IMG/VR virus record: IMGVR_UViG_3300037455_000372
Coordinates: 11,710-75,709 of that record
From: a virus
Lineage: Duplodnaviria; Heunggongvirae; Uroviricota; Caudoviricetes
Strand: one strand, 5' to 3'
DNA: 64,000 nt
Shown here: positions 1 to 42,521 of the stretch, piece after piece
Position numbering within the stretch: position 1 is the stretch's first letter
Layout: each line of letters opens with the position of its first letter
Made by a program: the position numbers and the translations under genes
The notes under the pieces: model-generated
What the model saw: the letters and a program-made list of their open reading frames with translations, nothing else
What the model was told of the DNA's origin: nothing
Databases searched by the model: none

Positions 1-702
1 CGCCTAGTCGTGATCTTGTACTTCTCGCCGACAAGCGGTGCCAGAATGTCGGCAAGAGGTGTCAGCCTGTCCTCGGACTCCTTGATACGGGCCTTCTTCT
101 TTTCCAGACTGTCTTGGTTCTTCAGCCTTCTGGCGTGTTTCGCGTTTATCTCGCGGAAGGCTTCCATAACCAAGTCCAGAGCCTCTTCCGGGACGTGGGT
201 CACCCAGAAATGGTAGTAGTCGGCCAGATTCTTGAAATCGGGGTACTGGTCGCCGATCTTGTCGCGTGCCTTTATGAAGCAGCGGAACTCTTTGCCGAAC
301 ATAAGGTCGTATTTGTCGTTACCGTCCTTGTCCTTCCCGGCCTGATGAAGCGAGATTCCCCATTTAGGGTCGTTCGCGTAGGTCTCGCGGAAGTCCGGGC
401 TGACCATACCGAACTCGAAGCGTCCACCCTCGTAGAGGCTGTCGTACACGACAACGCATTCCAAATTGTTCACGTCGCACTTGATTCCGGTGAACAGGAT
501 GGCGTCGAGTAAAAGGTAATCTTGCTGGTAGTTGTTGTGGTAGGCTGTCCATTCGTGACGCTGCACCCACGGCTTCTTGCCGAGGAAAAGGTCGTGCTTC
601 TTGGCGTATGCCTCTAGGTCGGCAACGAGCGACGAGGCGTATGCCTTGCGGAAGTCCTTTGCCGGTTCGGTGATGGTTTTCTGTTCGTCTTTCGTACTCA
701 TA
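1..702 (-). CDS. hypothetical protein, truncated by window edge (N-term MSTKDEQKTITEPAKDF...)
   Basis: uninterrupted minus-strand frame from ATG at 702 running off position 1; missing from ORF table only because no stop lies inside the window; promoter-like TTGCTATATTT-type motif region at 720-790 is shared with the divergent + gene. Confidence 0.5.
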
Positions 703-777
703 TAGGCAAATATAACAAATATTTTCGGTATTGACAATATCGTAAATAAAAATTATATTTCTCATAGTCGATTATAA

Positions 778-788
778 TTGCTATATTT
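778..788 (+). promoter_or_regulatory. TTGCTATATTT promoter-like motif upstream of CDS 794
   Basis: first copy of motif repeated >15x in window, always 10-40 nt upstream of a start codon. Confidence 0.5.
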
Positions 789-793
789 ACTAT

Positions 794-1060
794 ATGGATA
801 ACAACTTCAACAAATACACTAAACGCCACCTCAAGATCGTCCAGAGCGGCCAGACAATCTTCAGCAAGGACGTATATGTTTGCCTAGAGCATACCCACTA
901 CTGCAACGTCGAGTCGCCGTATTATTACTATTCAGATAGAAACAAGCGTGTACTCAAGATCAAGTTGGCTGAAGACGACAAGGAACTGAGCTACATCAAC
1001 CTCGGTTTCGGCGACACGTTCTTCGTAACCGTTCCACCTTCTAAAGAAACCGGTATCTAA
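794..1060 (+). CDS. hypothetical protein (88 aa)
   Basis: ORF directly after promoter motif; stop abuts next gene. Confidence 0.5.
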   Translation: MDNNFNKYTKRHLKIVQSGQTIFSKDVYVCLEHTHYCNVESPYYYYSDRNKRVLKIKLAEDDKELSYINLGFGDTFFVTVPPSKETGI

Positions 1061-1065
1061 CTCCT

Positions 1066-1737
1066 ATGATAGCCGGTATTGTAACACCACAAGTCTTCGA
1101 CGACATCACCTCCGGTTCGCTCAAGGCCGCTTCGATGTGCGACTTCCTAGAACTCCGCTACGACCTCTTCAAGGGTCGTCCGTGGGCATCGTTGGCCGGT
1201 ATGCTCAAGGAGACTATGCCCGACAAGAAGGTCATAGGAACCATCCGCACTAGGAGCGACGGCGGCGAGTTCCAGCAGTGCAAGCCAGATATGCGCCTAT
1301 CGCTCTGGAAGACCCTACTCGACGCGGAAACAACTCCGGACTGGGTGGACATCGAGCTGAACTTCATCGACACCCCCCACATCCACCTGTTCAGGGAACG
1401 CGAGGTCAAGGTGCTTCTGTCGGCTCACGACTGGTCGCAACGATACCCGACCCAGACAGCGATCAAGCTTATGGGGAAGGGAGCGGAATACAACGTGGAC
1501 GGCATCAAGCTGGCGACCACCGGGAGCGGATCCGTAGCGAAGGTTTACGAATTCCTGAAGTTCACCGAATGCTACAAGCTGGTCTCCGCGTTCGTGATGG
1601 GATCCAACTTCTCCTTCACCCGAATCCACTCGCTCGAAAAGGGAGCGAACCTCGTCTACGCCTCTCTGGATGGGTCGAGACAGTTCGGAATCCTCCCAGT
1701 AGAAGAAACGGCTAGTGCCTTGAAATCCCCAAGGTAG
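1066..1737 (+). CDS. type I 3-dehydroquinate dehydratase (AroD)-like protein
   Basis: motif series ELRYDLF / IGTIRTRSDGGEF / WVDIELNF / LLSAHDW..P / KLATTG / FVMGSNFSFTRI follows the AroD TIM-barrel pattern (established family pattern, judged by eye). Confidence 0.55.
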   Translation: MIAGIVTPQVFDDITSGSLKAASMCDFLELRYDLFKGRPWASLAGMLKETMPDKKVIGTIRTRSDGGEFQQCKPDMRLSLWKTLLDAETTPDWVDIELNFIDTPHIHLFREREVKVLLSAHDWSQRYPTQTAIKLMGKGAEYNVDGIKLATTGSGSVAKVYEFLKFTECYKLVSAFVMGSNFSFTRIHSLEKGANLVYASLDGSRQFGILPVEETASALKSPR

Positions 1738-2329
1738 ACAGCTTGACTGGTGTCATATCGTCCTTGCGCTTCCTATTGGGGTCGATGCACTGTGACAGAT
1801 ACTCGCACACCGGCTTGATGATATCCAGTTGCTCGGTCGTGAACAGGAACTTCTTGTTCACGACTTTTTCGTACCATTCCATAAGGCCGCTGCCGTTTTC
1901 CTCCGAAGTGGCAGCCCAGTCGGCGCACATCTCATATAAGTACGTCTGTTCCATCTTGGTGCAGTCGTTACCCTCGGACGCGTAGTCGCCGTCGCTCCAG
2001 TATTCACAGTGGTGCTTGTTCGACTTGATGTGTTCCATAACCACGTTATGGATAGCCAGCTTCTCCTTGTCGGATAGCGGTCCCGGAATGTACCTGAACG
2101 CTTGGCGAACCAGATTCTTGAGTTTCAGCTTGTCCTTGTCGTGGTTCATTACCCGGTCCATATCGATATCCTTCACCGTAGGTATCATATCGGCATAGAC
2201 GATTTTCGTATAGAAATATTGGACTCGCTCGATGTGAGCCTTTATCCGTCTTCTATACTTGAACGCATACTTGATTATTTGGAACAGTCGCAACATATTC
2301 AGTTTCATATTGGAAATATAGTAAACCAC
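1712..2329 (-). CDS. hypothetical protein (205 aa)
   Basis: long minus ORF, compact spacing with neighbours. Confidence 0.5.
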   Translation of the reverse strand: MVYYISNMKLNMLRLFQIIKYAFKYRRRIKAHIERVQYFYTKIVYADMIPTVKDIDMDRVMNHDKDKLKLKNLVRQAFRYIPGPLSDKEKLAIHNVVMEHIKSNKHHCEYWSDGDYASEGNDCTKMEQTYLYEMCADWAATSEENGSGLMEWYEKVVNKKFLFTTEQLDIIKPVCEYLSQCIDPNRKRKDDMTPVKLSTLGISRH

Positions 2330-2360
2330 GAGAAACCGTTATACCTATATTTCTCGTAGG

Positions 2361-3089
2361 TCAGTCTTCGTTGGAATTCTCGTCTTCTTCCGCTTCATCT
2401 TCCTCTTCCGGTTCTTCCTCGTACCAGTGGACTCCGATATTCTCTTCCTTGTATTCGAGGAACGGCCAGCCGAAACGGTCTTCGCAGCGGAACTCGTCGC
2501 AGTCCGGTCCGCAGTCGGGTGAGTACACGAACTTGGAATACTTACCCTTGTGTTCCACCTCTTTGCCGTTGATGATGGAAGTGTAGGTGTATTCGAAATT
2601 CGTGAGCAGTTCCGGACAATTCTTCTCGACCCATTCGCGAGGAGCCGATACCAGATAGTTCTGGCTCATATCGACGAAACCACATCGGACACAGAGCTTG
2701 TTTTCCTTTACCCATTCCTCGTTTTGGAACGTCTGGTCTAGGTCGTTTCCGAGCCACTTGCGGAAGTTCTCTGTCGGAGGATAGTCTTGTCCGTACATCC
2801 AGTTGTTCACCGAGAAATAGATGATACCGCTGTCCATACGGTTGAAGTCTTGAATCACGGCGTCCGGCAAGTCGGAATCGAACAAGTGTTCGGATCCGAA
2901 CAACTTGTCAAGCTCGTATAGCACGTTCTGCGGAGTGTAGAGCTTAGAAAGCAGCTCCATCGAGAACTTCGTCCCAGTCCGCGTATCGCGGATGACGTTG
3001 CGCTCCGGCTCGTACGACTTGTCGAGCGCAATTTCAAGGATACCCTCCCACTTGTCGATAAGAGGTTTGAGCATTTCCGGTGTAATCAT
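2361..3089 (-). CDS. hypothetical protein with poly-acidic C-terminus (EEEPEEEDEAEEDENSNED)
   Basis: ORF 2361..3152; start trimmed to ATG at 3089 (MITPEML, GAGG 8 nt upstream) to avoid 60-nt overlap with upstream gene. Confidence 0.5.
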   Translation of the reverse strand: MITPEMLKPLIDKWEGILEIALDKSYEPERNVIRDTRTGTKFSMELLSKLYTPQNVLYELDKLFGSEHLFDSDLPDAVIQDFNRMDSGIIYFSVNNWMYGQDYPPTENFRKWLGNDLDQTFQNEEWVKENKLCVRCGFVDMSQNYLVSAPREWVEKNCPELLTNFEYTYTSIINGKEVEHKGKYSKFVYSPDCGPDCDEFRCEDRFGWPFLEYKEENIGVHWYEEEPEEEDEAEEDENSNED

Positions 3090-3091
3090 AT

Positions 3092-3592
3092 CTACCTCAC
3101 TGATATTTCGTCGCGCCAGCCTTGTATACCGATCGTGAACGGCGGCTCGCATTTGCGACTAAGGACATTGAGGTCGGCCAGCTGGATAACCAGATTGACG
3201 TTGAAATTTCCGCTCTTGGTTATGGTACTACCGTATTCACCGATTTTCTCGCGATCTGGTTCTGTCTCGTACGTACCACATATAGTGATATACTCGTCCG
3301 TGTTCCGTGTGACTTCCCTGATCGAGACGTTCGTCTGGAACTCTTGATTGAACGGCGCGTATATGCACAACTTGGTGGCCTTGTGGAGTATGAAGTCGAT
3401 TGCCGCCTTGCGTGTCTCGTCTTCGGGGCAGATTCGGGCCGCCTTCATCTCGTTGAGGGTCGACTGGGCATACTGCTTCGCTTGGTCGAGATAAGCCATA
3501 ATACGAGTCAGGTCTTTCTCGGTCAATTCAGCATTAGCTTTGTTTAGCGAATCGTTAAAGACGCACGGGTTAAAAATGTCGAATATTTTCAT
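3092..3592 (-). CDS. hypothetical protein (166 aa)
   Basis: minus ORF in operon. Confidence 0.5.
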   Translation of the reverse strand: MKIFDIFNPCVFNDSLNKANAELTEKDLTRIMAYLDQAKQYAQSTLNEMKAARICPEDETRKAAIDFILHKATKLCIYAPFNQEFQTNVSIREVTRNTDEYITICGTYETEPDREKIGEYGSTITKSGNFNVNLVIQLADLNVLSRKCEPPFTIGIQGWRDEISVR

Positions 3593-3593
3593 G

Positions 3594-4040
3594 TTACACC
3601 TTTCCTTCGACCCAGTTAGTATCGAAGCTGGATTCTTTCACCTCGCCCGGAATCTTAGTCCAAGAGATGCGGAGGTCGTGCGCAAGGCTGTCGTCTTCCG
3701 GATCGTCCGGCACGAATTCATTTAGCCAGTCTTTCAAGTGGTCTTCGAAGTAATCGTCGTTCTCGTCGCCGATTTCCTTGTCGACAAACTTGGTCACGAC
3801 ATCCTTTGGCAGCTTTCCGTCGGCGGACAAACTGTCGATAAGCTCTTCGCGTTCGCAAACGTTGTGGAACCAGCCATCGTCGAATGTTTGTTCCGCGTAC
3901 TCGGCCATACGCATATTGAACAACAGTTTCTGCATCTGTTCCTTGTTCTCGTCGTCGAATACGCCCAATGTGCCGTGGGTGTAGATGTAGTCAGCGTCGT
4001 TGGAATCGGCTTGTGCGTCCCATTTAATCGTCCATTTCAT
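3594..4040 (-). CDS. hypothetical protein (start MKWTIKWDAQ)
   Basis: ORF 3594..4130 trimmed to ATG at 4040 preceded by GGAGAA; promoter motifs at 4067-4075 / 4087-4098. Confidence 0.5.
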   Translation of the reverse strand: MKWTIKWDAQADSNDADYIYTHGTLGVFDDENKEQMQKLLFNMRMAEYAEQTFDDGWFHNVCEREELIDSLSADGKLPKDVVTKFVDKEIGDENDDYFEDHLKDWLNEFVPDDPEDDSLAHDLRISWTKIPGEVKESSFDTNWVEGKV

Positions 4041-4086
4041 AGGAATTCTCCTTGTTTTCCGACAGTATAGCAATAAAAAGTTTGAA

Positions 4087-4098
4087 TTGCTATATTTG
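4087..4098 (+). promoter_or_regulatory. TTGCTATATTTG promoter-like motif upstream of CDS 4117
   Basis: exact copy of repeated motif 19 nt upstream of ATG 4117. Confidence 0.5.
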
Positions 4099-4116
4099 AT
4101 AAAAAAGGATCGGATT

Positions 4117-4590
4117 ATGAAAACCACCATTACGTTTTTCGCAGTGACCGCTGAACAGCTCGTAGACCACGAGTGGAGACAAGTGTACTATATGTACGAA
4201 AACACCGTCGTGTACGAGGCCGAAAAGGCGAAACGGTTCGATACCGTGGAAGAGGCAATGGAATTCCACGCCGGTATCAAGCCCAGCAAGTACACCAAGA
4301 ACGAGCAAATCCAGAAAATCCAGCTCACTGTCGACGTAAAGGAAACCTTTAGCGTCGGTACCGTGGACACGTTCACCAAGATCAAGCAGATGCTGGCCAA
4401 AGGCGGATTCCGCAAGGACTATACGACCAAGGAGGCCGAACGCTCGCTCTTGTGCTGCATCGGTTATGCCGCTTGCAAGTGCTGGAACGAGGAATGGACT
4501 GTAAAGTTCATCAAGGAAGTCGCCGACGCCGTCGATTTCCTCGACGACGAAGAAGTCCTCAACTACATCCGCGACAAAGAAGGTGACTGA
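4117..4590 (+). CDS. hypothetical protein (MKTTITFF..., 157 aa)
   Basis: in-frame ATG after promoter motif and AAAAGGA RBS; listed ORF 4000..4590 starts upstream of the promoter. Confidence 0.55.
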   Translation: MKTTITFFAVTAEQLVDHEWRQVYYMYENTVVYEAEKAKRFDTVEEAMEFHAGIKPSKYTKNEQIQKIQLTVDVKETFSVGTVDTFTKIKQMLAKGGFRKDYTTKEAERSLLCCIGYAACKCWNEEWTVKFIKEVADAVDFLDDEEVLNYIRDKEGD

Positions 4591-4883
4591 TGTTACCCGG
4601 CTGTGAAATCTTTATCAGCGGTTACGCACGTAAGAGCGCGATGCACAAGTTCGGCTGGATAGGCTACTGCAGCACCAACTTCAGTTCCGGACTTCTCGAC
4701 GCGCTCGAATTCGTCGACTCGAAGCGGAATGTTTGCAAACTTACCGAACTGAGCCTTCTTATAAAATACTTCGCATCTTACCGGGGCGTCAAGTACGACT
4801 TGTCGAAAAAGGACGACTACGAACAGCTCCGCTACACTCTCATAGCCGACTACTACGCTCACGAATGGGGAGAACAAGGTTAA
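4590..4883 (+). CDS. hypothetical protein (97 aa)
   Basis: ATGA start/stop overlap with previous gene. Confidence 0.5.
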   Translation: MLPGCEIFISGYARKSAMHKFGWIGYCSTNFSSGLLDALEFVDSKRNVCKLTELSLLIKYFASYRGVKYDLSKKDDYEQLRYTLIADYYAHEWGEQG

Positions 4884-4956
4884 CTATTTTTTATAGAAAA
4901 CTATTGCAAATTATGAATAATTAAAGTATATTTTTAATAGAAATGTATAAACTTAT

Positions 4957-5044
4957 TTTAGGAATGAGCGAGATTCCTAAAATGAAAAGTTTGGCGGCAT
5001 CTATGCCGACTAGTCCTATCTAGAACTCGCTCTTCTGGATAGGA
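4957..5044. repeat. three tandem perfect hairpins (TTTAGGAAT-GAGCGAG-ATTCCTAAA; CGGCAT-CT-ATGCCG; TCCTATC-N17-GATAGGA) in AT-rich spacer upstream of tnpB-like gene
   Basis: inverted repeats read directly from sequence; resemble subterminal hairpins of IS200/IS605-family ends. Confidence 0.5.
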
Positions 5045-5047
5045 TTT

Positions 5048-6349
5048 TTGTTTATGAAGACGGTTAAACTTACAATATGCAACGAAGTTGATGTGCTGGA
5101 TGATATGAGAATATTCAGCAGTATCGTTCGCATCGCGTTTAACCGTTTCCAAGATGGAATGGACGAAAAAGAAGTCCGCGCCTACTGCAATTCAAGGTTC
5201 AACCACAACAGCTGGTTCATCCAGTGTGCCATCAAGGAAGGTGCTGCACTGTACAAGCTGAATGGTAGTAAGCATATCTTGTTCGGTGGCAAGAACAACC
5301 TACGCCAATATATGCGTGGGATCATAGACAAGGCATCGTTCAAGTATCGCCGTATGTTACCGATAGGAATCCAAGGCGAGAAACAGCGTAAAGGGAATCG
5401 CTTGTTCTCGTTCGACTTTGAAACCCAACGGATTGTATACAAGCCGAACAAGGAAACCCACGTAGAAATCAAGTTCTTGCCGATGCGGAAGAATATCGCC
5501 GAAGAACTGTCCAAAGTACAAGAACTTGCACAACAGAACAATATAACGGTTTCCGTTAAGCTCTCTGATAAATATGTATGGCTTACCTATGACGAGACCT
5601 TAATCAAGGATGAACGATACATAAAGCTACGATCTAAGCGGGTGCTTGGTATAGATATGAACCCGAACTATATCGGGTTGTCTATCATAGAGTTCGATAA
5701 GAATGACGAGTTCAATGTATTGCACAAGCAAGTCTTTGATTTAAGACAGCTTACCGTTTCGTCCAGTAAATCGAGTACAGATAGCAAGTCCAAGTATCTA
5801 ACTAACAAGTTGAAACACGAGACTATTGCCATTGTCCATAAAATCAACAAGCTGGTTAATGTGTGGAAGTGCAAGACGGTTGCGATAGAAGATTTAAGCA
5901 TAAAACCGTCCGACATGAAGAAAGGCAAGACTTTAAACAAACTATGTAACAACAAGTGGGAACGAAACTTGTTCGTGATCAAGCTGAAAATGCTTGCTAA
6001 TCTGCATAAGTTCAATCTGGTTGAAGTCAACCCAGCGTATTCCAGTCAAGTAGGAAACATCGCCTACGGCGACGAAAATACACCAGATATGGTGGCTGCA
6101 TCTATTGAAATCGCTCGCAGAGCATACAAGAAATTCGACAAGGGATGGTTCTATCCGAAATTCAATATTCAGTTCCGAGATGAGCAATGGAAGCAAACAC
6201 TCGGTACGGTGGAAAATTGGAAAGACCTGTTCCGAAAAATCAAAGAATCGAAACTGAAATATCGGTTCCAGCTACTGGACTACGTTCAGAATGCCGTCTT
6301 TAGCAAAAACTATATTCAAAAGTGCTATTCTGTATACTCTTTTGCATAG
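5048..6349 (+). CDS. tnpB: TnpB-like RuvC-fold protein (IS200/IS605 OrfB family) lacking the zinc finger
   Basis: GIDMNPNYIGLSI (RuvC-I D), VAIEDLSIK (RuvC-II E), VNPAYSSQ (OrfB signature), PDMVAASIEIARRA (RuvC-III D); no CxxC pairs between the last two motifs; AT-rich compared with flanks. Confidence 0.7.
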   Translation: MFMKTVKLTICNEVDVLDDMRIFSSIVRIAFNRFQDGMDEKEVRAYCNSRFNHNSWFIQCAIKEGAALYKLNGSKHILFGGKNNLRQYMRGIIDKASFKYRRMLPIGIQGEKQRKGNRLFSFDFETQRIVYKPNKETHVEIKFLPMRKNIAEELSKVQELAQQNNITVSVKLSDKYVWLTYDETLIKDERYIKLRSKRVLGIDMNPNYIGLSIIEFDKNDEFNVLHKQVFDLRQLTVSSSKSSTDSKSKYLTNKLKHETIAIVHKINKLVNVWKCKTVAIEDLSIKPSDMKKGKTLNKLCNNKWERNLFVIKLKMLANLHKFNLVEVNPAYSSQVGNIAYGDENTPDMVAASIEIARRAYKKFDKGWFYPKFNIQFRDEQWKQTLGTVENWKDLFRKIKESKLKYRFQLLDYVQNAVFSKNYIQKCYSVYSFA

Positions 6350-7030
6350 TTATTTATAGTTTTGTATTTCATATATTCCTTCAAGTTCGTCCGCGACTTC
6401 GCGCATCGAGTGTTCCGCCATCCAAGTCTTGTTGTTGTCGATATAGAAGTGTACCGACTTGGACTGTTCGTAGGTCTTCCTAGAAAAATTCAAGTAACCG
6501 TCGGCACACTTGATATACAGATGTTCCGGATTTACGACCACATCTGAGTAGTACGATACTATCTGAGCCATCTGCGCCTCGAACGTCTGCTTGATGAACT
6601 GACGGACTTCGTCTCCGCCCATACCGCGAATGAGACCCTTCTCGATCAGCGAATCGACTTCGCCGCACCATAATGACACGGTTTCGGTATTATGCTCTTC
6701 GTGGACTATGCAGTTAATGTTCGGCTTGGACGTGTCGAACCCTGTAAAGACGCAGAACACGCATCCGCCAATCTTCAAGTTGCTTGTATCGTCGTGCTCG
6801 ACGCTCTTGAGACAGTTGCAGTTGATGATGTATTCGCGCTTCTCGACTTGGCACGACGGGTTGATATAGATGAACGGGTACCTCCGAGCCAGATCCAAGA
6901 GCTTTTCGTACGCTTCACGCTTGGTTTCCTCAAGCTGGAGGTTCTTGCTAACCGAAGCCAAGCTGGATTCGAGTTCTGTCTGGTGCTGCGACAGTGCAGC
7001 GATTCTTGTCATATCGTAACCATTTGCCAT
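6350..7030 (-). CDS. hypothetical protein (226 aa)
   Basis: minus ORF; stop abuts tnpB stop. Confidence 0.5.
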   Translation of the reverse strand: MANGYDMTRIAALSQHQTELESSLASVSKNLQLEETKREAYEKLLDLARRYPFIYINPSCQVEKREYIINCNCLKSVEHDDTSNLKIGGCVFCVFTGFDTSKPNINCIVHEEHNTETVSLWCGEVDSLIEKGLIRGMGGDEVRQFIKQTFEAQMAQIVSYYSDVVVNPEHLYIKCADGYLNFSRKTYEQSKSVHFYIDNNKTWMAEHSMREVADELEGIYEIQNYK

Positions 7031-7317
7031 CAGCGACGTTCCTTCAAATATTTAGTGTTGACCTTGCGCTCTTCCGCTGTCTTCAGCGGACAACGTACCG
7101 GACGCTCGAATTCGGTAAAATCCGGATGCATATATTGCTGTTCGTACACGAGCTTGTTGTGAGATGTCTTCCTAGGCGCGTAGCAAGCTGTATCGAGGTT
7201 GAAGTTGCCTAACGCGCAGTAACGGCGGTATGGATGCTTGCCACCCTTCTTTTCATCCAGCTTCACTTCCTTGAAATGCTCACAGCCGTCACATCCCGGC
7301 ATACCAATCATAGCCAT
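7030..7317 (-). CDS. hypothetical Cys-rich protein (95 aa)
   Basis: minus ORF, overlapping start/stop with neighbour. Confidence 0.5.
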   Translation of the reverse strand: MAMIGMPGCDGCEHFKEVKLDEKKGGKHPYRRYCALGNFNLDTACYAPRKTSHNKLVYEQQYMHPDFTEFERPVRCPLKTAEERKVNTKYLKERR

Positions 7318-7319
7318 AG

Positions 7320-7574
7320 TTACCTCTGGATTTCGCTACAGCGAGCCGGTTCACCCTTGCTGTTGTAGTACACCGTAATGCCATTCTTGGATTCGGACTG
7401 CCAGTAGCGCAGATATGCGATATTGGTCGACTTGTCGCAGAAGATGGAGAAGTCGCCACGAGCATCGATATCCACCATCTTGTAGATGCGACCGTTGTCG
7501 TGCAAGTTCTGTGCGTGGTCTTCGCATCCGGCAATAGCCAGCGCGGCCAACATAATCAACAAGTATTTCATCAT
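7320..7574 (-). CDS. putative lipoprotein (MMKYLLIMLAALAIAGC lipobox)
   Basis: ORF 7320..7691 trimmed to ATG 7574 after GAGGGGAAA; signal peptide plus LAIAGC lipobox. Confidence 0.55.
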   Translation of the reverse strand: MMKYLLIMLAALAIAGCEDHAQNLHDNGRIYKMVDIDARGDFSIFCDKSTNIAYLRYWQSESKNGITVYYNSKGEPARCSEIQR

Positions 7575-7792
7575 TTTCCCCTCGCATTTTTTGGTCTGTC
7601 GTCCAAAGGTTTCTTGCGTACCGGCTTCTCGCGCATCGCCCAATGGGTGAACGCCTCGGAACAGTCGTCCTTCATTTTGTGTTTTTCGCAATAGCTACGA
7701 GCCGGACACTCGTTACAATCGTCGTTGCTCATCACCCGGATAAGCTGCCGGATATGTTTTTCGTCTTTTGCAAATGCTTGTAGGTAATTCAT
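7571..7792 (-). CDS. small Cys-rich hypothetical protein (73 aa)
   Basis: promoter motif at 7798-7808 directly upstream; ATGA overlap with downstream gene. Confidence 0.5.
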   Translation of the reverse strand: MNYLQAFAKDEKHIRQLIRVMSNDDCNECPARSYCEKHKMKDDCSEAFTHWAMREKPVRKKPLDDRPKNARGK

Positions 7793-7867
7793 ACTCGAAA
7801 TATAGCAACTTTAGTCCAATATTGCTATAAAGAGTGGAAGTCTGCCCAAAAGAAAAAGATTAAATAG

Positions 7868-8809
7868 CTACTTCCACTGCTTGTTGACGGCTACCGAACG
7901 CTTCGGGTCGACATTCTTGCCCCACGAGCGCATCTGCCCACGGTAGTCGTTACCGTTCTTCTGGATCCACTTGAGGCAATCCTCGTAATCGCCGTGGTAA
8001 AGCGGCCTATACTCGTTCTCGCCGTACACGTTGTATTCAGACGACTCGCTCTCTTGGTCAACGATGAAGCAGCTCTTCGGCTGTCTGCGGTCAAATATAA
8101 CCTGATTCTCCTCGTCGCCGTAATGGTAGAACTCGTTTCCGGTGCCTATGAACACGATGCTGCCCGAACCGTACTTCAGGCGGCCAAAATGCGGCCTAGG
8201 AGCCTCGTCTATGGGGAACGCGAACAGATAGTCGCCATATTCCTTTCCGGCGGTAGAACCGGCGTTAGAATAGGCAAGGCTGCCGATCTCGTCGCCGTAC
8301 TGGAACCCTTCCCTCCAGATGTCCCAAGCATAGTTGGAATTGTGGACAAGCCAGCCGTTCACGACGGTGTGGTTGAAGTCCAGAGTGGTCCTGTCTTGGT
8401 TGGTATACTCGTCCGAACTGTAGATGACCTTGCAAGCGGTCTGCGGATATGAATTGACAATCGTGTAGATGTCCTCGGCGACGAAGTCGTACGCGTCGTA
8501 ATCCTTATACGTGCTGGCGATTCCGTCCGGGTCGAACGCCGCGATGTCGGTGACAATCTCGACGACCAAGCTCGGATTCTCGAAGAGCGTGTCAAGCGCG
8601 TCCAGTGCGCTCTCGTAGGGGTGCTTCTCGTGCCAGACAGCGTTGAACTTATCAGTATAGGGGGATCCGTCCTTCTCGATCGACTTCGGCTTCCTGTACG
8701 CCTTGCGGAGATACATCGTAGGCTCGCTCAGCGACTCGTAGGCGGCTGAGGCGGCTTCCACCAGCGGAGACTTCGGCAAGTTGGACAGATACTCTTTGAA
8801 CTGGTTCAT
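7868..8809 (-). CDS. hypothetical protein (313 aa)
   Basis: long minus ORF; divergent from + operon with motif-rich spacer 8810-8883. Confidence 0.55.
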   Translation of the reverse strand: MNQFKEYLSNLPKSPLVEAASAAYESLSEPTMYLRKAYRKPKSIEKDGSPYTDKFNAVWHEKHPYESALDALDTLFENPSLVVEIVTDIAAFDPDGIASTYKDYDAYDFVAEDIYTIVNSYPQTACKVIYSSDEYTNQDRTTLDFNHTVVNGWLVHNSNYAWDIWREGFQYGDEIGSLAYSNAGSTAGKEYGDYLFAFPIDEAPRPHFGRLKYGSGSIVFIGTGNEFYHYGDEENQVIFDRRQPKSCFIVDQESESSEYNVYGENEYRPLYHGDYEDCLKWIQKNGNDYRGQMRSWGKNVDPKRSVAVNKQWK

Positions 8810-8853
8810 AGGTCGAAAATATCGATTGCTCTAATGGCAGTTTATCAGTTATA

Positions 8854-8864
8854 TTGCTATATTT
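8854..8864 (+). promoter_or_regulatory. TTGCTATATTT promoter-like motif upstream of CDS 8884
   Basis: motif copy; reverse-complement copy at 8826-8834 faces the divergent gene. Confidence 0.5.
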
Positions 8865-8883
8865 CAGCAAAAAGGAACACTTT

Positions 8884-9669
8884 ATGGTAGAAACACAAGA
8901 TTTCGACAAGTACGCGGATATGACCCGCGAAATGATGAAGAATGACAGCTGGCTCGGCTACGATCTCGGCTGCATCGATTCGGCAAGGAAGGCGTTCGTC
9001 AAGGCCAAGGCATCTATGGATGCTGACAACCACTCAGGAGCGTCGTGGAGTGTCACCGCAAACTTCCTCGCCAAGGCCATCTACAACGACCGTCTCGTGC
9101 CAATTACCAAGAAGGAGCTGGACAGTATCGACAAGGAATACGAACCGAGCGAGGTCCACCCACTGCCGAGGTTCAGCTGCTACTACGGTCTGAAGTGCTT
9201 CTACTATATGGGCATCCGCGATTTTTACAAGCTCGTGAACCAGAAAGGCGAAATCGCCTACACCGACTTCAACCGAGTAGAAGCCCACTTGGTCAAGGAC
9301 GACGGCAAATCCGTCGACATCCTCAAAAAGAACCGCGACCACAAGTATATGCTCAATCCACTCGCGTGCAGTATCGTGGACGAGCTGTTCCCCATCAAGT
9401 TTCCGCACTTCCGCGACAACATATTCCGCTACCACGTCACGTTCGTCGTCAAGGACCACGGCACTCTGAGCAGCGACAACTGCTTCGTCAAGGTCGTAGG
9501 ACTCGTGACGCCAGACGGCGTATCGGTTAAGTGCAACCGTTTCTACCATTACTACACCTACAACACGCCGGAGTACGACCACGTACTCCAAGAGATTACC
9601 GAGGACGAGTTCAACGCCGACAATCCGAAGATCGACGTTAAGAAGCTTCCCGTTCTCGACAAGGAGTAA
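8884..9669 (+). CDS. hypothetical protein (261 aa; start MVETQDF)
   Basis: ATG after motif and AAAAGGAA RBS; listed longer ORF starts inside the promoter. Confidence 0.55.
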   Translation: MVETQDFDKYADMTREMMKNDSWLGYDLGCIDSARKAFVKAKASMDADNHSGASWSVTANFLAKAIYNDRLVPITKKELDSIDKEYEPSEVHPLPRFSCYYGLKCFYYMGIRDFYKLVNQKGEIAYTDFNRVEAHLVKDDGKSVDILKKNRDHKYMLNPLACSIVDELFPIKFPHFRDNIFRYHVTFVVKDHGTLSSDNCFVKVVGLVTPDGVSVKCNRFYHYYTYNTPEYDHVLQEITEDEFNADNPKIDVKKLPVLDKE

Positions 9670-9672
9670 AAT

Positions 9673-10770
9673 ATGATTGATGAACGTATCGTTAGACTCG
9701 CCAGCCGCCTTATCGACGCGGTTAACCTCCAGTCCGGCGAGAACATCCTTATCGAATGCACCGACACACCGTCGAGCATTTCCGCAGCACTTACCGCAAT
9801 CGCGGCATCCCGTGGAGCGAACCCCATCGTGCGGACGTACGACAGCGTCGTTGAAAAGGAGTTCATCGCCACCGCATCCAAGGCAGCGAAGGAGAACCGC
9901 GCAAGGCACGAGCTGGCCGTTATGCGAGATATGCACGCCTACATCGCCGTCCGTGGTGCAAACAACGTGTTCGAGATGTCCAGCATCGACGGACAGACCG
10001 TGACCGATTACAAGCAAATTATGAAGCCGGTTCTGCGCTACCGAGTGGACCACACGAAGTGGTGCATCACCAGATGGCCGAACGCCGCGATGGCTCAGGA
10101 AGCCAAGATGTCCACCGAGAGCTTCGTGGATTTCTACTTCGACGCTTGCCTCGTAGACTATAAGCAGATGGCCAAAGACGCCCAGCCGCTGGTCGACCTT
10201 ATGAACAAGACAAAGAAGGTGCGCATCGTCGCTCCGGGTACGGACCTGTCCTTCAGCATCGAAGGACTTCCGGCGATTCCTTGCTGCGGCGAGAAGAACA
10301 TTCCGGACGGTGAAGTCTACACGGCACCGGTAAAGGACAGCGTGAACGGTCGTATCTCCTACAACACGCCGACGGTCTATTCAGGCCAACCGTTTTACGG
10401 CATCGTGCTCGAATTCGAGAACGGCAAGATCGTGGACGCCAAGTGTACGTCCGGCAGCCAGTCCGCGCTCGACGCGATATTCAACTCCGACGAAGGCGCA
10501 AGGTTCGTCGGCGAGTTCGCTATGGGTCTCAACCACAAGGTGACAAAGCCGATGTGCGACATCCTCTTCGACGAGAAGATTGCCGGTTCCATCCACTTCA
10601 CGCCGGGTAACGCCTACCAAGACGCTTGGAACGGCAACACATCCGCCATCCACTGGGACCTCGTCCTGATTATGGCAAAGGAATACGGCGGCGGCGAAGT
10701 CTGGTTCGACGACGTGCTCGTACAGAAGGACGGCAGATTCGTTCTGCCTGAACTCGAACCCCTCAACTAG
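9673..10770 (+). CDS. M29-family aminopeptidase (AmpS/PepS, aminopeptidase T-like)
   Basis: 365 aa; NIPDGEVYTAP, GSIHFTPG and overall layout follow the thermophilic aminopeptidase family pattern (by eye). Confidence 0.65.
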   Translation: MIDERIVRLASRLIDAVNLQSGENILIECTDTPSSISAALTAIAASRGANPIVRTYDSVVEKEFIATASKAAKENRARHELAVMRDMHAYIAVRGANNVFEMSSIDGQTVTDYKQIMKPVLRYRVDHTKWCITRWPNAAMAQEAKMSTESFVDFYFDACLVDYKQMAKDAQPLVDLMNKTKKVRIVAPGTDLSFSIEGLPAIPCCGEKNIPDGEVYTAPVKDSVNGRISYNTPTVYSGQPFYGIVLEFENGKIVDAKCTSGSQSALDAIFNSDEGARFVGEFAMGLNHKVTKPMCDILFDEKIAGSIHFTPGNAYQDAWNGNTSAIHWDLVLIMAKEYGGGEVWFDDVLVQKDGRFVLPELEPLN

Positions 10771-10777
10771 GTGTTTT

Positions 10778-12202
10778 ATGAAGACATATTCTGGAAACGA
10801 ACTTATAAAGGTGGCGAAGTATCGCCAGTCGGCGCAGGAATTCCTCGGCCAGCTCGAAGCAAAGGGGTTCGCCGTCGAAACAGTGACCGTCGAAGACAGC
10901 ACGGCTACTTTCCACTACAAGGCCGAACAAGACGGCCAGACCGTCTATGCTGACATCCTTGTCAAGAGCAGCAAGGGTGAAATCGGTGCCAAGGCAAAAT
11001 GCGGGTCCCGTTCCCATAAATACGAGTTCGAAAGGACGTACTATTCCAGCGAACGGTCAGATTTTTTCAAATGGATCGACTGCGTAACTAAGCTCAATAC
11101 CACGGAAGCCTTGGACGGCTCTATGTCGTTGCCTCACGACCTTTGGTATTCCATACCCAAGAACAAGGCGTTCTGTGAACGAGTGCGCAATGATTTGCTG
11201 CCGCTCACCAAATGCGACTATCAACTGAATAACTTGGCAAACCTAGTACATATGCCGGACGACCAATATAACTTTGGTATATCGATCGGGGCTTTTCCGC
11301 AACTTGTCTACAGCGCACAAATCAACGACTTTGTCCGAGACCCGCAACATCCGGAACTTTTTATTGATATCGGCATCACTAGCAGACAGTCAGGCTTCAT
11401 AACAATTAAGTGCTACGATTTCGACCCTCGTGGAAACGATTTGAAGCGCAAGATGTACCCTGAGACCAAGCTGGTTGCGGTGAAGAACCATACGCCAGAT
11501 AACGGCGAGTATATCTACCATACGGACTACGAAACCGCGCTGAAACTCGTCAAGGAGGCCAAAGACCGTCTCTGGGCTATTTACGACGAAGAAGCCAAGC
11601 GTCACGGAATTCCAGAAACTTGGAAGGAGGCTACCGGGTGGACTACTGACGGCCCGGTATATCCGGAAGGTTCCTCCGCTGGCGAAAGTATTACCAAGAA
11701 GCGCGATGACGCTCGCGCAAAGCTTATCGAGCAGAACTTGCGCGTCATCAAGGCTCAAGTCAGCCGTCGCTGCGACGCATCACTGGAAGATACCTTTCCG
11801 GGCGCACAGTATCTCGACAAGGTACCCAAATGGAGAGAGGAGAGCATCCTCCACGGAAACCAGTATTACTACGAGGCTTACGCCACTATTCCGTACAAGT
11901 TCCCAAACATCAAGGGTTCCAAAATCGCTTGGCAAGACAAGGTCATAGAGATTACCATCACCTATGACAAGTCATTCGACCGTTTCACCATTTCGTACAG
12001 AATCCCGTTCAAGTTCGCTTGTATGTGCGGCGTTTACGACTGGTTCTACGAAGCCAAGAAGCACGATACTGAAAAGATGATGATTATCAAGAACTCCGGC
12101 AGAGCCACCCACACGGATATTGGCTCCTCCGGCTTCAGGTACATCAAGCAACACCTCGACGAATTGAAGCAGTTCGCCGAGTACAAGGGATTCAAGGAGT
12201 GA
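10778..12202 (+). CDS. hypothetical protein (474 aa)
   Basis: long + ORF, tightly packed operon. Confidence 0.55.
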   Translation: MKTYSGNELIKVAKYRQSAQEFLGQLEAKGFAVETVTVEDSTATFHYKAEQDGQTVYADILVKSSKGEIGAKAKCGSRSHKYEFERTYYSSERSDFFKWIDCVTKLNTTEALDGSMSLPHDLWYSIPKNKAFCERVRNDLLPLTKCDYQLNNLANLVHMPDDQYNFGISIGAFPQLVYSAQINDFVRDPQHPELFIDIGITSRQSGFITIKCYDFDPRGNDLKRKMYPETKLVAVKNHTPDNGEYIYHTDYETALKLVKEAKDRLWAIYDEEAKRHGIPETWKEATGWTTDGPVYPEGSSAGESITKKRDDARAKLIEQNLRVIKAQVSRRCDASLEDTFPGAQYLDKVPKWREESILHGNQYYYEAYATIPYKFPNIKGSKIAWQDKVIEITITYDKSFDRFTISYRIPFKFACMCGVYDWFYEAKKHDTEKMMIIKNSGRATHTDIGSSGFRYIKQHLDELKQFAEYKGFKE

Positions 12203-13728
12203 TTATGCCCAGAGGACCAAGAATCAAGGTTTACGAAGAAAACGAACTGTTCGAGGCGGCTTCCTACATCCGGACGCTCGAAGGCGACCGTCCGCAACGA
12301 GAATCCGAAAACGTCCTCAAGCAGATCAACAAGATTTTCACCCTCCGCAGGGCCGAAGTCGCATCCAAGTTCGCGACACTCACCTTTACGGGCGTCGTGT
12401 GCAATACCCAAGCAAGGCTGGAAGCCTTTTTCCACGACTTCCATCGAGGCCGTTGGCAGATTACCGTGACGGCTTACGTCGGCGACTACACGAAGAGTAT
12501 CACGGATATCGAATACTGTCTCTACATCGGGTTTCCGCACTTTATGGATTGGGTCAAGAACGTCATTCCCTACAAGAAGAACCTTCCGTTGGAACCGGGG
12601 CAGAACGCCGCGTCCGAACTCTGGTACGAGACCGAATCCGGCAAGAAGTTCATTTCACAGATGACAGAAATCGGCTTCGTTTCTCAAGTGGATAGCAAGT
12701 ATGGTTATTCCTCTCCACTGAAATTGGGTAAGAAGGCGCACGACAAGATTGTTCCTCTCGTGTACAGCGACGACATCGGACACTTCCGTGTTTCCGACAA
12801 TGACCAGAATATCAACGGAGATGTCCGTATCAAGATGAAAGGAAAGGAGCCGACCGTCTGGTTGTGTTCAAGCGTGGCGGATATTATGGAAAAACAGTTC
12901 AACTGTCCGGTCCACATATTTGACCCCGACCACGCTGTGGAACCGGACAAGTTCGTCGAGGAAGTGAAGAAGCTCTTGAAGTTCAACGAAGACCGTATCG
13001 ACAAGCTTGCTGCAGATAACGGCGGACTCACTTGGAGAGGAATCGACTTCCATACTCACTACAGCGACAAGTGCGCACGCCCGTACGATTTCGATAAGCT
13101 TCCTAAAAAAGACCAAGATCGAATCACCGAGCACTTGGCGAAGCTCGCTGAAAATCGTATGGACGAATATGACCACTTCTTCACTACGTCCAAGTTCGCC
13201 AACCTCTACAACTATATCAAGGAACACGGACGCGTCGCACCATACCCTAGCCAGTTCGGCAACGAGCACCACATCGAGTTCGAGGTTCCGATCGTCCTTG
13301 ACGAACCGATTAACTACGGTGAAAGCTTCAAGCAGCGCAACGTCTCGGTTACCGGCGAAATCTACGTCAAAGACAAAGAGTGTAAAAGCTGGTCGTGGTG
13401 CGGAGACGGCGAATCTTTTTATCCGGACTCCATCAGAATGTATATTCCGCTCTGCTACTACACCGACAAAGGTGCTTTCACAAGCTGGGAGGAAGCCATC
13501 GCCGCCGGTAGCAACACAGATTACGGCGGAGCTTGCTATATCCAAGGATGCAAGGTTCCTCGCGGCAAGAACAATTACTCTAGCGTCTGCTTCAACGAAT
13601 ACTGGCACGACGACCAGTGCATCGATGCCGAAGAGCTGAAACGCTTCGAGCACGTCCTTATGAACATCAAGGCCGACCACGAGCAGTTCCTCGTCGACCG
13701 CCACTACAAGGAGAAGGCCGATGGCTAA
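12199..13728 (+). CDS. hypothetical protein (509 aa)
   Basis: ATGA overlap with upstream gene. Confidence 0.55.
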   Translation: MIMPRGPRIKVYEENELFEAASYIRTLEGDRPQRESENVLKQINKIFTLRRAEVASKFATLTFTGVVCNTQARLEAFFHDFHRGRWQITVTAYVGDYTKSITDIEYCLYIGFPHFMDWVKNVIPYKKNLPLEPGQNAASELWYETESGKKFISQMTEIGFVSQVDSKYGYSSPLKLGKKAHDKIVPLVYSDDIGHFRVSDNDQNINGDVRIKMKGKEPTVWLCSSVADIMEKQFNCPVHIFDPDHAVEPDKFVEEVKKLLKFNEDRIDKLAADNGGLTWRGIDFHTHYSDKCARPYDFDKLPKKDQDRITEHLAKLAENRMDEYDHFFTTSKFANLYNYIKEHGRVAPYPSQFGNEHHIEFEVPIVLDEPINYGESFKQRNVSVTGEIYVKDKECKSWSWCGDGESFYPDSIRMYIPLCYYTDKGAFTSWEEAIAAGSNTDYGGACYIQGCKVPRGKNNYSSVCFNEYWHDDQCIDAEELKRFEHVLMNIKADHEQFLVDRHYKEKADG

Positions 13729-14083
13729 ACTCGCAGACCCGTTCTACGCCAACGCAGTTAAGTCAAACCGCGAAGACATCGACAAGTGCGACGGACAGTT
13801 GTTGAACTACCTACAGTCGCGAGTTTTGTTCGCAGCCACGTTAGCAAAGACCAAGCACCGCTGGGGTATTCCCATAGATGACCCGGAGCGCGAGGCTCAG
13901 GTCAAGAAGAACGCGCTCTCGTTCATCAAACAGCACGGCTGCGGTCTCATTACCAAGGATGACATTTCCGAGTATATCGACCTCGTCATCAAAATCACCA
14001 AGCGAGCCGAGGAACGCGAACTCGCCGAACTGGAGAAACTGGAGAAGGAAAATGAAAGTAGCCGAACTGCTCAGACTCATTAA
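13721..14083 (+). CDS. chorismate mutase (AroQ class)-like helical protein
   Basis: N-term R-x-x-IDxCDGQLLNYLQSRV...HRWGIPIDDPEREAQV matches the AroQ R..ID..D..L..L..R / P..DP.RE pattern (by eye). Confidence 0.45.
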   Translation: MAKLADPFYANAVKSNREDIDKCDGQLLNYLQSRVLFAATLAKTKHRWGIPIDDPEREAQVKKNALSFIKQHGCGLITKDDISEYIDLVIKITKRAEERELAELEKLEKENESSRTAQTH

Positions 14084-40478: not shown

Positions 40479-41071
40479 TCAGATATCGTAGCCTTCACGT
40501 CCATCGCCAACAGAGCCGCCGTATAGAGTACGTCTTCATCTTGAGAAAACTGCTTCATAGCCGTCACGAGCGACAATGCCGTATTGTTGTACTTCAGCGC
40601 ACGGACGGCACCCATATCCTTGATACCGCCATCCATAGAGCACGCCATCAATTCGAGGTTGCTGCTAATCGCAACATCTGACAAAAACGCGTAGCCACCC
40701 CCACTAATTTCAACACCAGTTGCTGGCTCAGGAAAATCGATTACTAAGCCTTTAGCACCATCAATACCGGCCATCTTATAAGCAATCAGTATGCTCTGAA
40801 CAAGCTGTTCACGCACTCCTGACTTGCAGCTGAACAAGTCGGTAAGCCTTCCATTAAGTCCTTCCACCACAAACAATATCAACAGTTGCGCAAGCTCGGT
40901 AAAAGTTTCGATCTTGTCCAAGCTGTCGTAGGTACACCAAGGAATATGAACCAAACCTTCTTCATCAGGTTTCGGAAATTCAATCGGGTCACGAAGGTTT
41001 CTATCACCGATTGAAAAACTATGTTCCGAAGACGAATTGGTTTCGAAAACCCCATTACGCATTGTTTCCAT
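40472..41071 (-). CDS. paralog family 2 protein (N-term METMRNGVFETNSSSEH)
   Basis: same signature as 37246 and 37852 genes. Confidence 0.55.
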   Translation of the reverse strand: METMRNGVFETNSSSEHSFSIGDRNLRDPIEFPKPDEEGLVHIPWCTYDSLDKIETFTELAQLLILFVVEGLNGRLTDLFSCKSGVREQLVQSILIAYKMAGIDGAKGLVIDFPEPATGVEISGGGYAFLSDVAISSNLELMACSMDGGIKDMGAVRALKYNNTALSLVTAMKQFSQDEDVLYTAALLAMDVKATISEC

Positions 41072-42509
41072 CGAATACTCCAGTGGCGACTATCGCCTTT
41101 GTAAGTTTGTCGATTACCGGCACGGTCACGCTGTTACCGATAAGCTTCATCCATCTCTGTCTAGTAGGAGGAAGCTCGAAATCCTCCGGGAAGCCTTGGA
41201 TGCGGCAAGCTTCCTTGTTCGTGATCTTACGGTAATTCTTATCCAAAGCGATATGCTTCAAGAATTCCGCCTTGCTGTTATGGGGCAAGTCGACCATAGC
41301 GACGTAATCGTTCGTATCGCTCGCTACCATAGTCGGGAAGATGTTGCACGATCTGAGGAACACCCGGTAGACACCGTTGATGCCAGTGCTGACCTTGGAA
41401 TTCTTCAAGTCGTAACGGACTTCCGCAACGCTCAACACACCTTCCTCAACCAGTTTCTTGATGGTTTCGATAACCACTGACCGGCTGAACTTCTTCAGTG
41501 CCGGTTGCTTGAAAATCTCCGGCAGACAGCGACCCTCTTCACAAGCCTTGATGACACTGCATATTGGAAGGTTCAAGTCCCCGCATTTTCCGACACCACC
41601 ATTGTAGGCATAGCGGTAGTCGACTCGGCGTATGATGTTCATCCTTACCAGAGCTGTCAACGACCTAAACAAGTCGGCCTTGTTGATATCCGGAAGCAAG
41701 TCGCCGATATGGTCGAACGACATCGGATTGCCGTCTTGCGGACCGTACTTCGACTTGCGGCGGTTCCTCATTATGGCCTCACAAATCCGTCGCTGGTTGT
41801 CCGACGTATTGGTGATTTCCCAAGAGTGAATCGTGGTCGCGCCGTCCCTAGCGTCGTTGAAAACGTAGTAGTCGTTCTCGCCGGTCGCGTTCTTGGACAA
41901 GCTGCGTGACGCCGACTTGACCTTGCTCATATCGACATATTCGCCGGTAAGAATCTCGTGCATCGTGAGCTTGTTCGGAGTCGGTTCTGGAAACTTGAAC
42001 TTCTCAAGCATAGCCGGATCGCGGAACCCAACAATGTACACACGCTCTCGCATCTGCGGAGAACCGTAGTCGAACGAGTTCAGAACCTTCCACGCCGCGT
42101 GGTACCCGGCTTCCTCGATTCTGGACAAGATGTACTGGAACGCCTCGATGTTGTGCTTGTCGGTCAACCCCTTAACATTCTCGAACAAGAAAGCCTTCGG
42201 CTGGCTCTTCGTCAAGAGGTAGATGGTATCGTTCCACAGCTGGCCACGGTCGTCATCAAATCCGAGACGCTTTCCAGCAACAGACCACGACTGACAAGGC
42301 ACACCGGCGGTTATGAAATCCACGGACGGAGGGTCCACTATCTTCGTGATATCGCCCAAGTTCTTGTCCTTGGACATCTTATGGTTGATACAGTAATACT
42401 CGATGGCGTCCTTGGCGACTTCGGAGAAGCCGACGCACTGACCGCCGTTGTTCTTGGCGGCAATGTGGAACCCACCTATACCAGCAAACAAGTCTAAAAA
42501 CGTGAACAT
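41055..42509 (-). CDS. dcm: DNA (cytosine-5)-methyltransferase
   Basis: FLDLFAGIGGF (motif I), GVPCQSWSVAGKR (motif IV PCQ), ENVKGL (motif VI); start trimmed to MFTFLD because the longer ORF overlaps tRNA-Arg. Confidence 0.8.
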   Translation of the reverse strand: MFTFLDLFAGIGGFHIAAKNNGGQCVGFSEVAKDAIEYYCINHKMSKDKNLGDITKIVDPPSVDFITAGVPCQSWSVAGKRLGFDDDRGQLWNDTIYLLTKSQPKAFLFENVKGLTDKHNIEAFQYILSRIEEAGYHAAWKVLNSFDYGSPQMRERVYIVGFRDPAMLEKFKFPEPTPNKLTMHEILTGEYVDMSKVKSASRSLSKNATGENDYYVFNDARDGATTIHSWEITNTSDNQRRICEAIMRNRRKSKYGPQDGNPMSFDHIGDLLPDINKADLFRSLTALVRMNIIRRVDYRYAYNGGVGKCGDLNLPICSVIKACEEGRCLPEIFKQPALKKFSRSVVIETIKKLVEEGVLSVAEVRYDLKNSKVSTGINGVYRVFLRSCNIFPTMVASDTNDYVAMVDLPHNSKAEFLKHIALDKNYRKITNKEACRIQGFPEDFELPPTRQRWMKLIGNSVTVPVIDKLTKAIVATGVFDGNNA

Positions 42510-42521
42510 ATAAACCCTAAT

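Follow-up and report, generated by a model that had tools for sequence, protein, structure and literature searches.

What is a tnpB-like gene, led by three hairpins, doing in a phage genome: does it belong to a mobile element, to the remnant of one, or to a nuclease that the phage has made its own? The question is posed by a 64,000-nucleotide stretch of a virus of the Caudoviricetes (IMG/VR record IMGVR_UViG_3300037455_000372, positions 11,710 to 75,709), which we call the window and in whose numbering all positions are given. An initial annotation, made from the sequence alone, had pointed out the gene and had listed all three readings. The locus is a mobile element of about 1.5 kb in a huge gut or rumen phage, from which the transposase gene has been lost and in which the TnpB gene is intact. 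Extending from about 4872 or 4880 to 6371, it is, with good probability, a non-autonomous, tnpA-less derivative of an IS607-type insertion sequence (IS) that circulates among huge Prevotella and rumen-gut phages. It encodes an intact RuvC protein of the TnpB superfamily that belongs to a large zinc-finger-less family, bears repeat motifs in both ends and a conserved structured RNA that runs up to the right end, and has close copies at many loci, some of them paired with a serine-recombinase TnpA.

A TnpB protein without a zinc finger

The open reading frame (ORF) as listed, 5048–6349, opens with TTG and has 433 codons, with an in-frame ATG at 5054. Because all 120 of the 120 best database homologues are 431 residues long and start with MKTVKL at the ATG that matches 5054, this is the probable start, and the gene is placed at 5054–6349 (+ strand); the frame first described is thus intact, with a start that probably has to be moved. 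In the numbering of the 431-residue protein, the RuvC residues and the OrfB signature that had been read from the translation are confirmed as GIDMNP (RuvC-I, D201, 5654–5656), AIEDLS (RuvC-II, E279, 5888–5890), NPAYSSQ (residues 326–332) and PDMVAAS (RuvC-III, D345, 6086–6088), all on the + strand. D201, E279 and D345 are invariant in an alignment of 105 family members that are 29–86% identical to the query, and E279 and the GIDL motif align to the catalytic motifs of Cas12f. Profile matches were a 'TnpB-related' model of NCBIfam (TIGR01766), weakly (E = 0.007), and the 'transposase' family PHROG 12300 (6e-7). Since a local Pfam profile search of the protein returned nothing relevant and a PDB sequence search gave only weak matches, structure comparison was used. 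An AlphaFold model built from the 105-member alignment (predicted local distance difference test, 94.6; predicted template modelling score, 0.87) contains the WED-REC-RuvC fold of TnpB and Cas12f and, by its secondary structure, places D345 at the N-terminus of the helix that follows strand β5, the canonical RuvC-III position. Judged by this model, the protein is a TnpB-superfamily nuclease with a predicted intact active site. Two other identities were ruled out: a nuclease-dead TldR repressor, by the invariant catalytic triad, and a Type V CRISPR-Cas (Cas12) effector, by the lack of an adjacent repeat array, none being found in window positions 1–14000.

The protein has no CxxC motif, and only 12 residues separate NPAYSSQ from D345, leaving no C4 zinc finger (OrfB_Zn_ribbon/TNB). 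The cysteines of the finger occur in none of the family members examined, all of which share the arrangement NPxYSS-IGN-(8–14 residues)-PD..A.S.EI.RRG. As far as these sequences tell, the finger is missing throughout the family and was not, as had been supposed, lost in this copy; the absence as such was correctly seen. It does not exclude TnpB membership, because finger loss has been reported in some large TnpB branches (PMC10691335). The homologue family is large: at 90% identity it forms 2679 clusters, for which the Pfam label computed beforehand is PF27229 (SSO2105_N), and at 50% identity 992.

In both ISDra2 TnpB (PDB 8H1J) and Cas12f (PDB 8DZJ, deposited as 'OrfB_Zn_ribbon domain-containing protein', and others) RuvC-II and RuvC-III are separated by the OrfB zinc ribbon, whereas the window protein has a short loop in place of this insert and differs further by a C-terminal domain of about 70 residues after RuvC-III. 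Another contrast is that Cas12f is accompanied by CRISPR arrays, unlike the window gene. Zinc-finger-less TnpB branches have already been classified, for example the virus-enriched major clade RIIIr-4 (Altae-Tran et al. 2023, PMC10691335), in which the RuvC-III aspartate is replaced by histidine (PMC10691335). Compared by clade description, not by tree, the present protein resembles RIIIr-4 in lacking the C4 zinc finger and differs from it in that D345 is invariant.

Ends, copies and the transposase gene

The ends of the window element were set by comparing copies, among them full copies that bear tnpA. At the left end (4872–4945, + strand) homology to element-less relatives of the phage stops at 4871, and the sequence aligns with the left ends both of complete IS607-like copies and of those that sit in other contexts. 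Among copies the left end begins TTAA(C/T), and this conserved start (TTAAC) lies at 4880 in the window; either the left junction is exact at 4872, or the element is preceded by 8 nucleotides (nt) of uncertain origin (4872–4879). Two direct repeats (4885–4904 and 4929–4948) and a sigma-70-like sequence (TTGCAA-17-TATATT, 4904–4932) are found in the left end, and an inverted copy of the repeat motif lies inside the right end at 6356–6367. Such repeat units in both ends are an IS607 trait, as is the lack of DDE-type terminal inverted repeats and of a target-site duplication, and no direct repeats flank the element. The right end (TTATTTATAGTTTTGTATTTCA, 6350–6371, + strand) is the same in full copies from two contexts (L052 and L053) and in all other contexts, its sequence ...TATAGTTTTTGTATTTCA being identical across all copies, and homology to the element-less relatives restarts at 6372. 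The element therefore reaches 22 bp beyond the tnpB stop codon; the downstream gene does adjoin that stop, as first described, while the element continues past it. The AT-richness that had been remarked on is confirmed, the GC content being 0.40 in the element (0.28 in the left end and leader, 0.42 in the ORF) against 0.50 in each 2-kb flank.

Proteins 80–90% identical to the window protein are encoded in at least 10 unrelated huge-phage contexts, with neighbouring genes that include IF3, an EcoRI-like methylase with GmrSD, an SMC-like gene, DnaB with gp32, DNA ligase and a histidine phosphatase; differing flanks were seen at L009, L013, L015, L052, L053, L066, L076, L077, L188, L190, L195 and L196. 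Up to four copies lie on one 215-kb contig. Three to four diverged copies (58–65% identical to the query) occur per contig, as at L016, L017, L021 and L024 on one IMG/VR contig and at L056–L058 on one contig of a metagenome-assembled genome (MAG), and second, partial copies stand within 3 kb of a full copy (L018:1754–2414 and L021:6769–7430). Since single contigs hold several diverged or partial copies, the element appears to proliferate inside single phage genomes. Farther afield, tblastn found copies 30–38% identical in Lak megaphages, other uncultured huge phages and Campylobacter phage CP220. A search of genome contigs turned the gene up only on MAG contigs of 88–317 kb, which look like mis-binned phage, and none of the isolate host genomes had it; among GenBank phages, megablast found no match to the locus. 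On the longest of these contigs (JAFXNA010000004, 317 kb; L055:2700–3000) a copy with a 5'-truncated left end follows directly after a tRNA-like 3' end (GGTTCAAATCC...).

The link to IS607 comes from relatives in which the transposase gene is still present. Directly upstream of tnpB in L052–L054 stands an ORF of 208 residues of the Resolvase family (PF00239), a serine recombinase with an N-terminal helix-turn-helix, and the tail of a tnpA gene precedes tnpB in L014. One tnpA-tnpB unit from pig gut, with a TnpB 84% identical to that of the window, is identical over 2078 bp in two contexts, which gives its exact ends. These autonomous pig-gut and rumen copies (L052–L054, L014) resemble the window copy in a TnpB 78–84% identical, the same right end, a homologous left end and a shared 3' RNA; they differ in having the 208-residue serine recombinase where the window has a 75-nt hairpin module, and in a length of 2078 bp as against about 1500 bp. 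The serine-recombinase gene that stands upstream of tnpB in IS607 elements is thus present in L052–L054 and absent from the window copy, and because it is found in such close relatives the window copy is taken to be a non-autonomous derivative. Neither tnpA nor a second copy of the element was found in the window, and no Y1 (HUH) tnpA was seen in any locus examined.

Among named elements, ISCaje4 of Campylobacter phage CP220, annotated as an IS200/IS605-family IS, has the same order of genes, a resolvase-like ORF being followed by TnpB. Its TnpB is 30% identical to the window protein over 96% of the length (E = 8e-65), is likewise zinc-finger-less (NPxYSS...PD..ASIEI.RRG) and shares the C-terminal extension; the phage that carries ISCaje4 is large and virulent. 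Unlike the window element, ISCaje4 has a TnpB of 465 residues, retains a resolvase-like ORF of 80 residues, belongs to a different host clade and has no three-hairpin leader, our covariance model of the leader (R1) having found nothing in it (L001).

Two structured RNAs

The 3' end of the gene carries a second layer of information. In an alignment of the last 200 nt of the ORF from 16 copies (57–100% protein identity), long runs are conserved at synonymous sites, and RNAalifold finds four helices (6175–6204, 6219–6233, 6245–6268 and 6269–6296, + strand) of 30 base pairs in all, 14 of which show compensatory changes. Paired cells make up 96.9% of the total, as compared with 21–41% when the partners are slid by 1–3 columns, and the observed covariation score was matched by none of 500 shuffles. 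Normalised synonymous-codon entropy, which is about 0.75 over most of the gene (0.54–0.81 in codons 1–360), drops to 0.29–0.48 from codon 361 to the end. Contrary to the earlier statement that no right-end hairpin is evident, a terminal hairpin (6317–6344, + strand) lies just inside the ORF end, 5 nt ahead of the stop codon, and recurs, in differing sequences and a slightly shifting register, in 21 of 23 variants. The whole structure (6146–6371, + strand) covers the last 68 or so codons and ends at the right end, as does the structured RNA over the ORF 3' end in TnpB/OMEGA systems. Its position and behaviour are those expected for the scaffold of a TnpB omega-RNA (right-end RNA, reRNA), and we infer that it is one. 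The suggestion that the element bears an omega-RNA overlapping its 3' end is thereby upheld by the covarying structure, the terminal hairpin, the synonymous suppression and the conserved right end; the covariance-model search that had been proposed brought no known family, an Rfam 15 scan of 6100–6400 at E ≤ 10 yielding chance-level matches only and no RAGATH-18, and the structure emerged from the alignment of copies instead.

By the TnpB paradigm, the flank that follows (TATATTCCTTCAAGTTCGTC, 6372–6391, + strand) would encode the guide. The sequence directly 3' of the right end differs in each context, and the flank of the window from 6372 matches the corresponding site in two element-less relatives, being identical in L051 and having one mismatch over 21 nt in L050.

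Ahead of the gene, fold energy, covariation and a covariance model delimit a leader RNA at 4946–5053 (+ strand). It begins with a conserved TATAAACTT box (4946–4954) immediately 5' of hairpin 1, a box that also precedes tnpB in the autonomous copies (TATATAAACTT box). Hairpin 1 (4955–4983) has perfect 11-bp arms and the loop GAGCGAG (4966–4972), hairpin 2 (4995–5008) has 5 bp, and hairpin 3 (5013–5045) has 13 bp, including U·G and G·U pairs, and the loop CTCGCTC (5026–5032); a run of five or six U residues (5045–5050) follows hairpin 3 directly ahead of the ATG. The 110 nt upstream of the gene fold at −39 kcal/mol (z = −5.65 relative to dinucleotide shuffles). The three hairpins are therefore real, and the arms of hairpin 1 are perfect as stated; with its wobble pairs, hairpin 3 is not.

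Pairing holds in 98.8% of cells across 11 distinct leader sequences, which come from at least nine contexts, as against 35–48% with the partners slid. The 7-nt loops of hairpins 1 and 3 occur in four versions, in each of which one loop is the exact complement of the other (GAGCGAG/CTCGCTC, GGACGAG/CTCGTCC, GGTCGAG/CTCGACC and GGGCAAG/CTTGCCC), with compensatory changes in three of the seven loop-loop pairs, and the U·G and G·U pairs of hairpin 3 would be mismatches on the opposite strand. These features support a sense-strand RNA with an intramolecular kissing loop, in which hairpins 1 and 3 would be docked by a 7-bp loop-loop helix. Hairpin 3 and its U-run were flagged as terminator-like, and the 3' arm of hairpin 3 contains AGGA, so that together they look like a terminator-like structure that could sequester the AGGA, 4–8 nt before the ATG. 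That the leader throttles expression of tnpB and the omega-RNA, by attenuation or by translational occlusion, is suggested by its anatomy alone, and we give this about an even chance.

Other explanations of the leader were rejected. A tracr-like pairing between leader and 3' RNA scored no better than shuffles in RNAduplex and was inconsistent between copies, and it was also dismissed because subfamilies that have no leader possess the same 3' RNA. Known ribozymes, a group I intron (IStron) and RAGATH-18 were set aside after Rfam scans of both RNAs, the leader included, which gave only sub-threshold chance matches. An origin at the DNA level, in which hairpins 1 and 3 would be an inverted site for protein binding whose copies gene conversion keeps similar, was rejected because the covariation is limited to the 7 loop bases, the arm lengths differ and stay different, and the G·U pairs are strand-specific.

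The distribution of the hairpins bears on what they are for. Matches to the covariance model are confined to the close subfamily, and there to the sequence directly ahead of tnpB; an exact DNA scan of IMG/VR for hairpin 1 gave no matches, and a looser gapped pattern gave about 100 chance matches there and one true locus. The hairpins start about 75 nt inside the left end, occur in a single tnpA-less subfamily, and are absent from autonomous copies, from the tnpA-less copy L077 and from a more distant subfamily. The resemblance to IS200/IS605 ends that the initial annotation had seen would, if meaningful, mark the element as one of IS200/IS605 type and make them single-strand recognition structures of the left end for a Y1 (HUH) transposase. 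They do stand upstream of a tnpB-like gene, and hairpins that contain G·T pairs are tolerated in the single-stranded ends of such elements. Their position within the element, their absence from the autonomous and from other tnpA-less copies and their behaviour as sense-strand RNA speak against this, as do the serine recombinase in place of a Y1 transposase in the autonomous relatives, the loop-loop covariation, which has no role in Y1 recognition, and the lack of an equivalent hairpin pair at the right end outside the ORF; we regard it as hardly credible.

The main alternative to a cis-acting leader is a discrete, terminated small RNA. The three-hairpin unit would then be a stand-alone gene in the place of tnpA, with the TATAAACTT box as promoter, an RNA of about 95 nt and an intrinsic terminator, that acts in trans, for instance through loop dimerisation or by regulating other copies. 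The conserved box immediately 5' of hairpin 1, the U-run after hairpin 3 and the complementarity of the loops, which could pair between molecules as well as within one, all agree with such a gene. Against it, the unit is always 4–8 nt from the tnpB ATG and was never found elsewhere, no trans target was found, and its predicted duplex with the 3' RNA is no better than with shuffles, so that we consider it unlikely.

Two further observations concern the 5' side of the gene in other copies. In the distant subfamily (L016–L026) a near-consensus TTGACA-17-TATATT promoter stands 40 nt upstream of the ATG, which falls about 10 nt past the −10 box, making tnpB nearly leaderless. In L076 (2501–3847) the gene call opens at an in-frame start farther upstream and runs through the hairpin leader, which brings it to 448 residues, an extension that recurs in the database (P0003, P0024 and others) and is likely a mis-annotation.

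Taken with the protein, the two RNAs also bear on whether the element is a decaying, functionless IS remnant whose conservation merely reflects recent spread. The missing tnpA, the rearranged left junction and the AT-rich, foreign-looking composition would be in keeping with that. Against decay stand an ORF that is intact in more than 120 variants (80–100% identity) and whose synonymous divergence is ordinary except in a minor part, catalytic residues invariant across 29–86% identity, and compensatory changes in both RNAs. Of the earlier term 'recent IS remnant', the loss of tnpA stands and the decay does not, the ORF, the triad and the end repeats all being kept; a functionless remnant seems to us extremely improbable.

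Insertion site and mode of spread

Relatives of the neighbouring gene were not found in IMG/VR, and a metagenome scan then yielded the two element-less relatives, whose flanks are 92–95% identical to those of the window. In place of the element (window 4871–6372) they carry 395 bp (L050, 4103–4497) or 825 bp (L051, 4660–5484) with one or two small genes of normal GC content. By this comparison the inter-gene slot is a hot spot for cassettes, and what the window shows is cassette replacement, not simple insertion. The right junction is exact, and here the element has reshaped its neighbour: the convergent phage gene at 6350–7030 (− strand) encodes 226 residues, the last 6 codons and the stop of which come from the right end, whereas its relatives have 223 residues and match residues 1–220 only (C-terminus ...GIYEIQNYK* in the window, ...GIYNQC* in the relatives). 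The other convergent neighbour, an ORF of 97 residues, ends ...EWGEQG* in the window and ...EWGPK* in the relatives.

This setting gives some room to the idea of a domesticated RNA-guided nuclease, fixed in its phage and kept because the phage gains by it, perhaps by having its competitors in a co-infection cut at the homologous locus, and no longer a transposon. No tnpA is present in the window, contigs with a 100%-identical protein share one locus, the right end is fused into the C-terminus of a neighbouring gene, the catalytic triad is intact and the putative guide flank matches the element-less relatives. The copies at 80–90% identity, however, have the same ends at 10 or more unrelated loci, some still linked to tnpA, and the repeat motifs of both ends are retained. 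Domestication, which had been among the initial suggestions, is accordingly not favoured and in our estimate rather improbable; it overlaps with, and does not exclude, a homing role.

Several findings weigh against the derivation from IS607. All six contigs with the identical protein have it at one locus, from which it follows that this copy is fixed within its phage lineage, as domestication would also have it. The left junction is not clean, the relatives having 395 or 825 bp of other genes there, so the copy arrived by, or was later altered by, recombination or deletion. Characterised IS607 elements terminate in GG and insert at or after GG (PMC13565253), and characterised IS607 TnpBs have GG termini, a G-rich target-adjacent motif (TAM) and a RAGATH-18 reRNA (PMC13565253, PMC11061315); none of these is shown by the present element, which differs from those systems (PMC13565253, PMC11061315) in the missing zinc finger as well. 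With the IS607 TnpB of ISFba1 (PDB 8IAZ; PMC11061315) sequence similarity is negligible, and the flanks are not the AGGAG/GAGGG TAM. The right end terminates ...TTT(C/T)A in all copies, not in GG, and the left flank is TA in six of 10 contexts and GG in two, one of which is the window. Together, the TA left flank and the (C/T)A right end hint at TA as the crossover dinucleotide in place of the GG of IS607. No clear TAM could be read from the 5' flanks of the 10 insertions. The junctions with a TA left flank are those of L013, L052, L053, L066, L195 and L196.

If the element is an IS607 derivative, its parts would work together as follows. The 3' RNA would be the omega (reRNA) scaffold, the guide being supplied by some 16–20 nt of flank after 6371, and TnpB with this RNA would cut DNA that bears the guide sequence beside a TAM. 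Such cutting would help the element to be retained, or to be copied into element-less relatives during co-infection; for transposition, autonomous copies would have to provide TnpA in trans. The three hairpins are a separate add-on and would limit expression of tnpB and the omega-RNA. A bolder version, to which we assign a low probability, makes the leader a new class of structured RNA that replaced the transposase gene and gates TnpB and guide RNA, with RNA-guided cutting and recombinational copying as the sole means by which the tnpA-less elements pass from one co-infecting huge phage to another, in the manner of a gene drive between phages; if true, it would also explain the cassette-like replacement at this locus.

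Elsewhere in the window, 39 tRNA genes that cover most amino acids lie within 23 kb (36649–60042), all on the minus strand, a tRNA island typical of huge phages. On the same strand, the ORF at 41055–42578 is DNA methyltransferase-like and that at 45656–47689 NAD synthetase-like; most other large ORFs of the window have no PHROG match.

While zinc-finger-less TnpB branches were known before (PMC10691335), the leader RNA and the omega-like RNA are described here for the first time. The element represents a very abundant lineage, for the most part restricted to huge phages, of compact (431-residue) zinc-finger-less TnpB proteins in which the active site is intact, and its likely guide-RNA scaffold and exact ends are what tests of the protein as a nuclease or editor need. 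The leader, whose two loops covary exactly, is a candidate regulatory RNA motif of a new kind, connected with the control of an RNA-guided nuclease. For the phages themselves, the findings mean that huge phages are host to an actively moving IS607-like element, in autonomous and transposase-less forms, that reshapes the termini of their genes.

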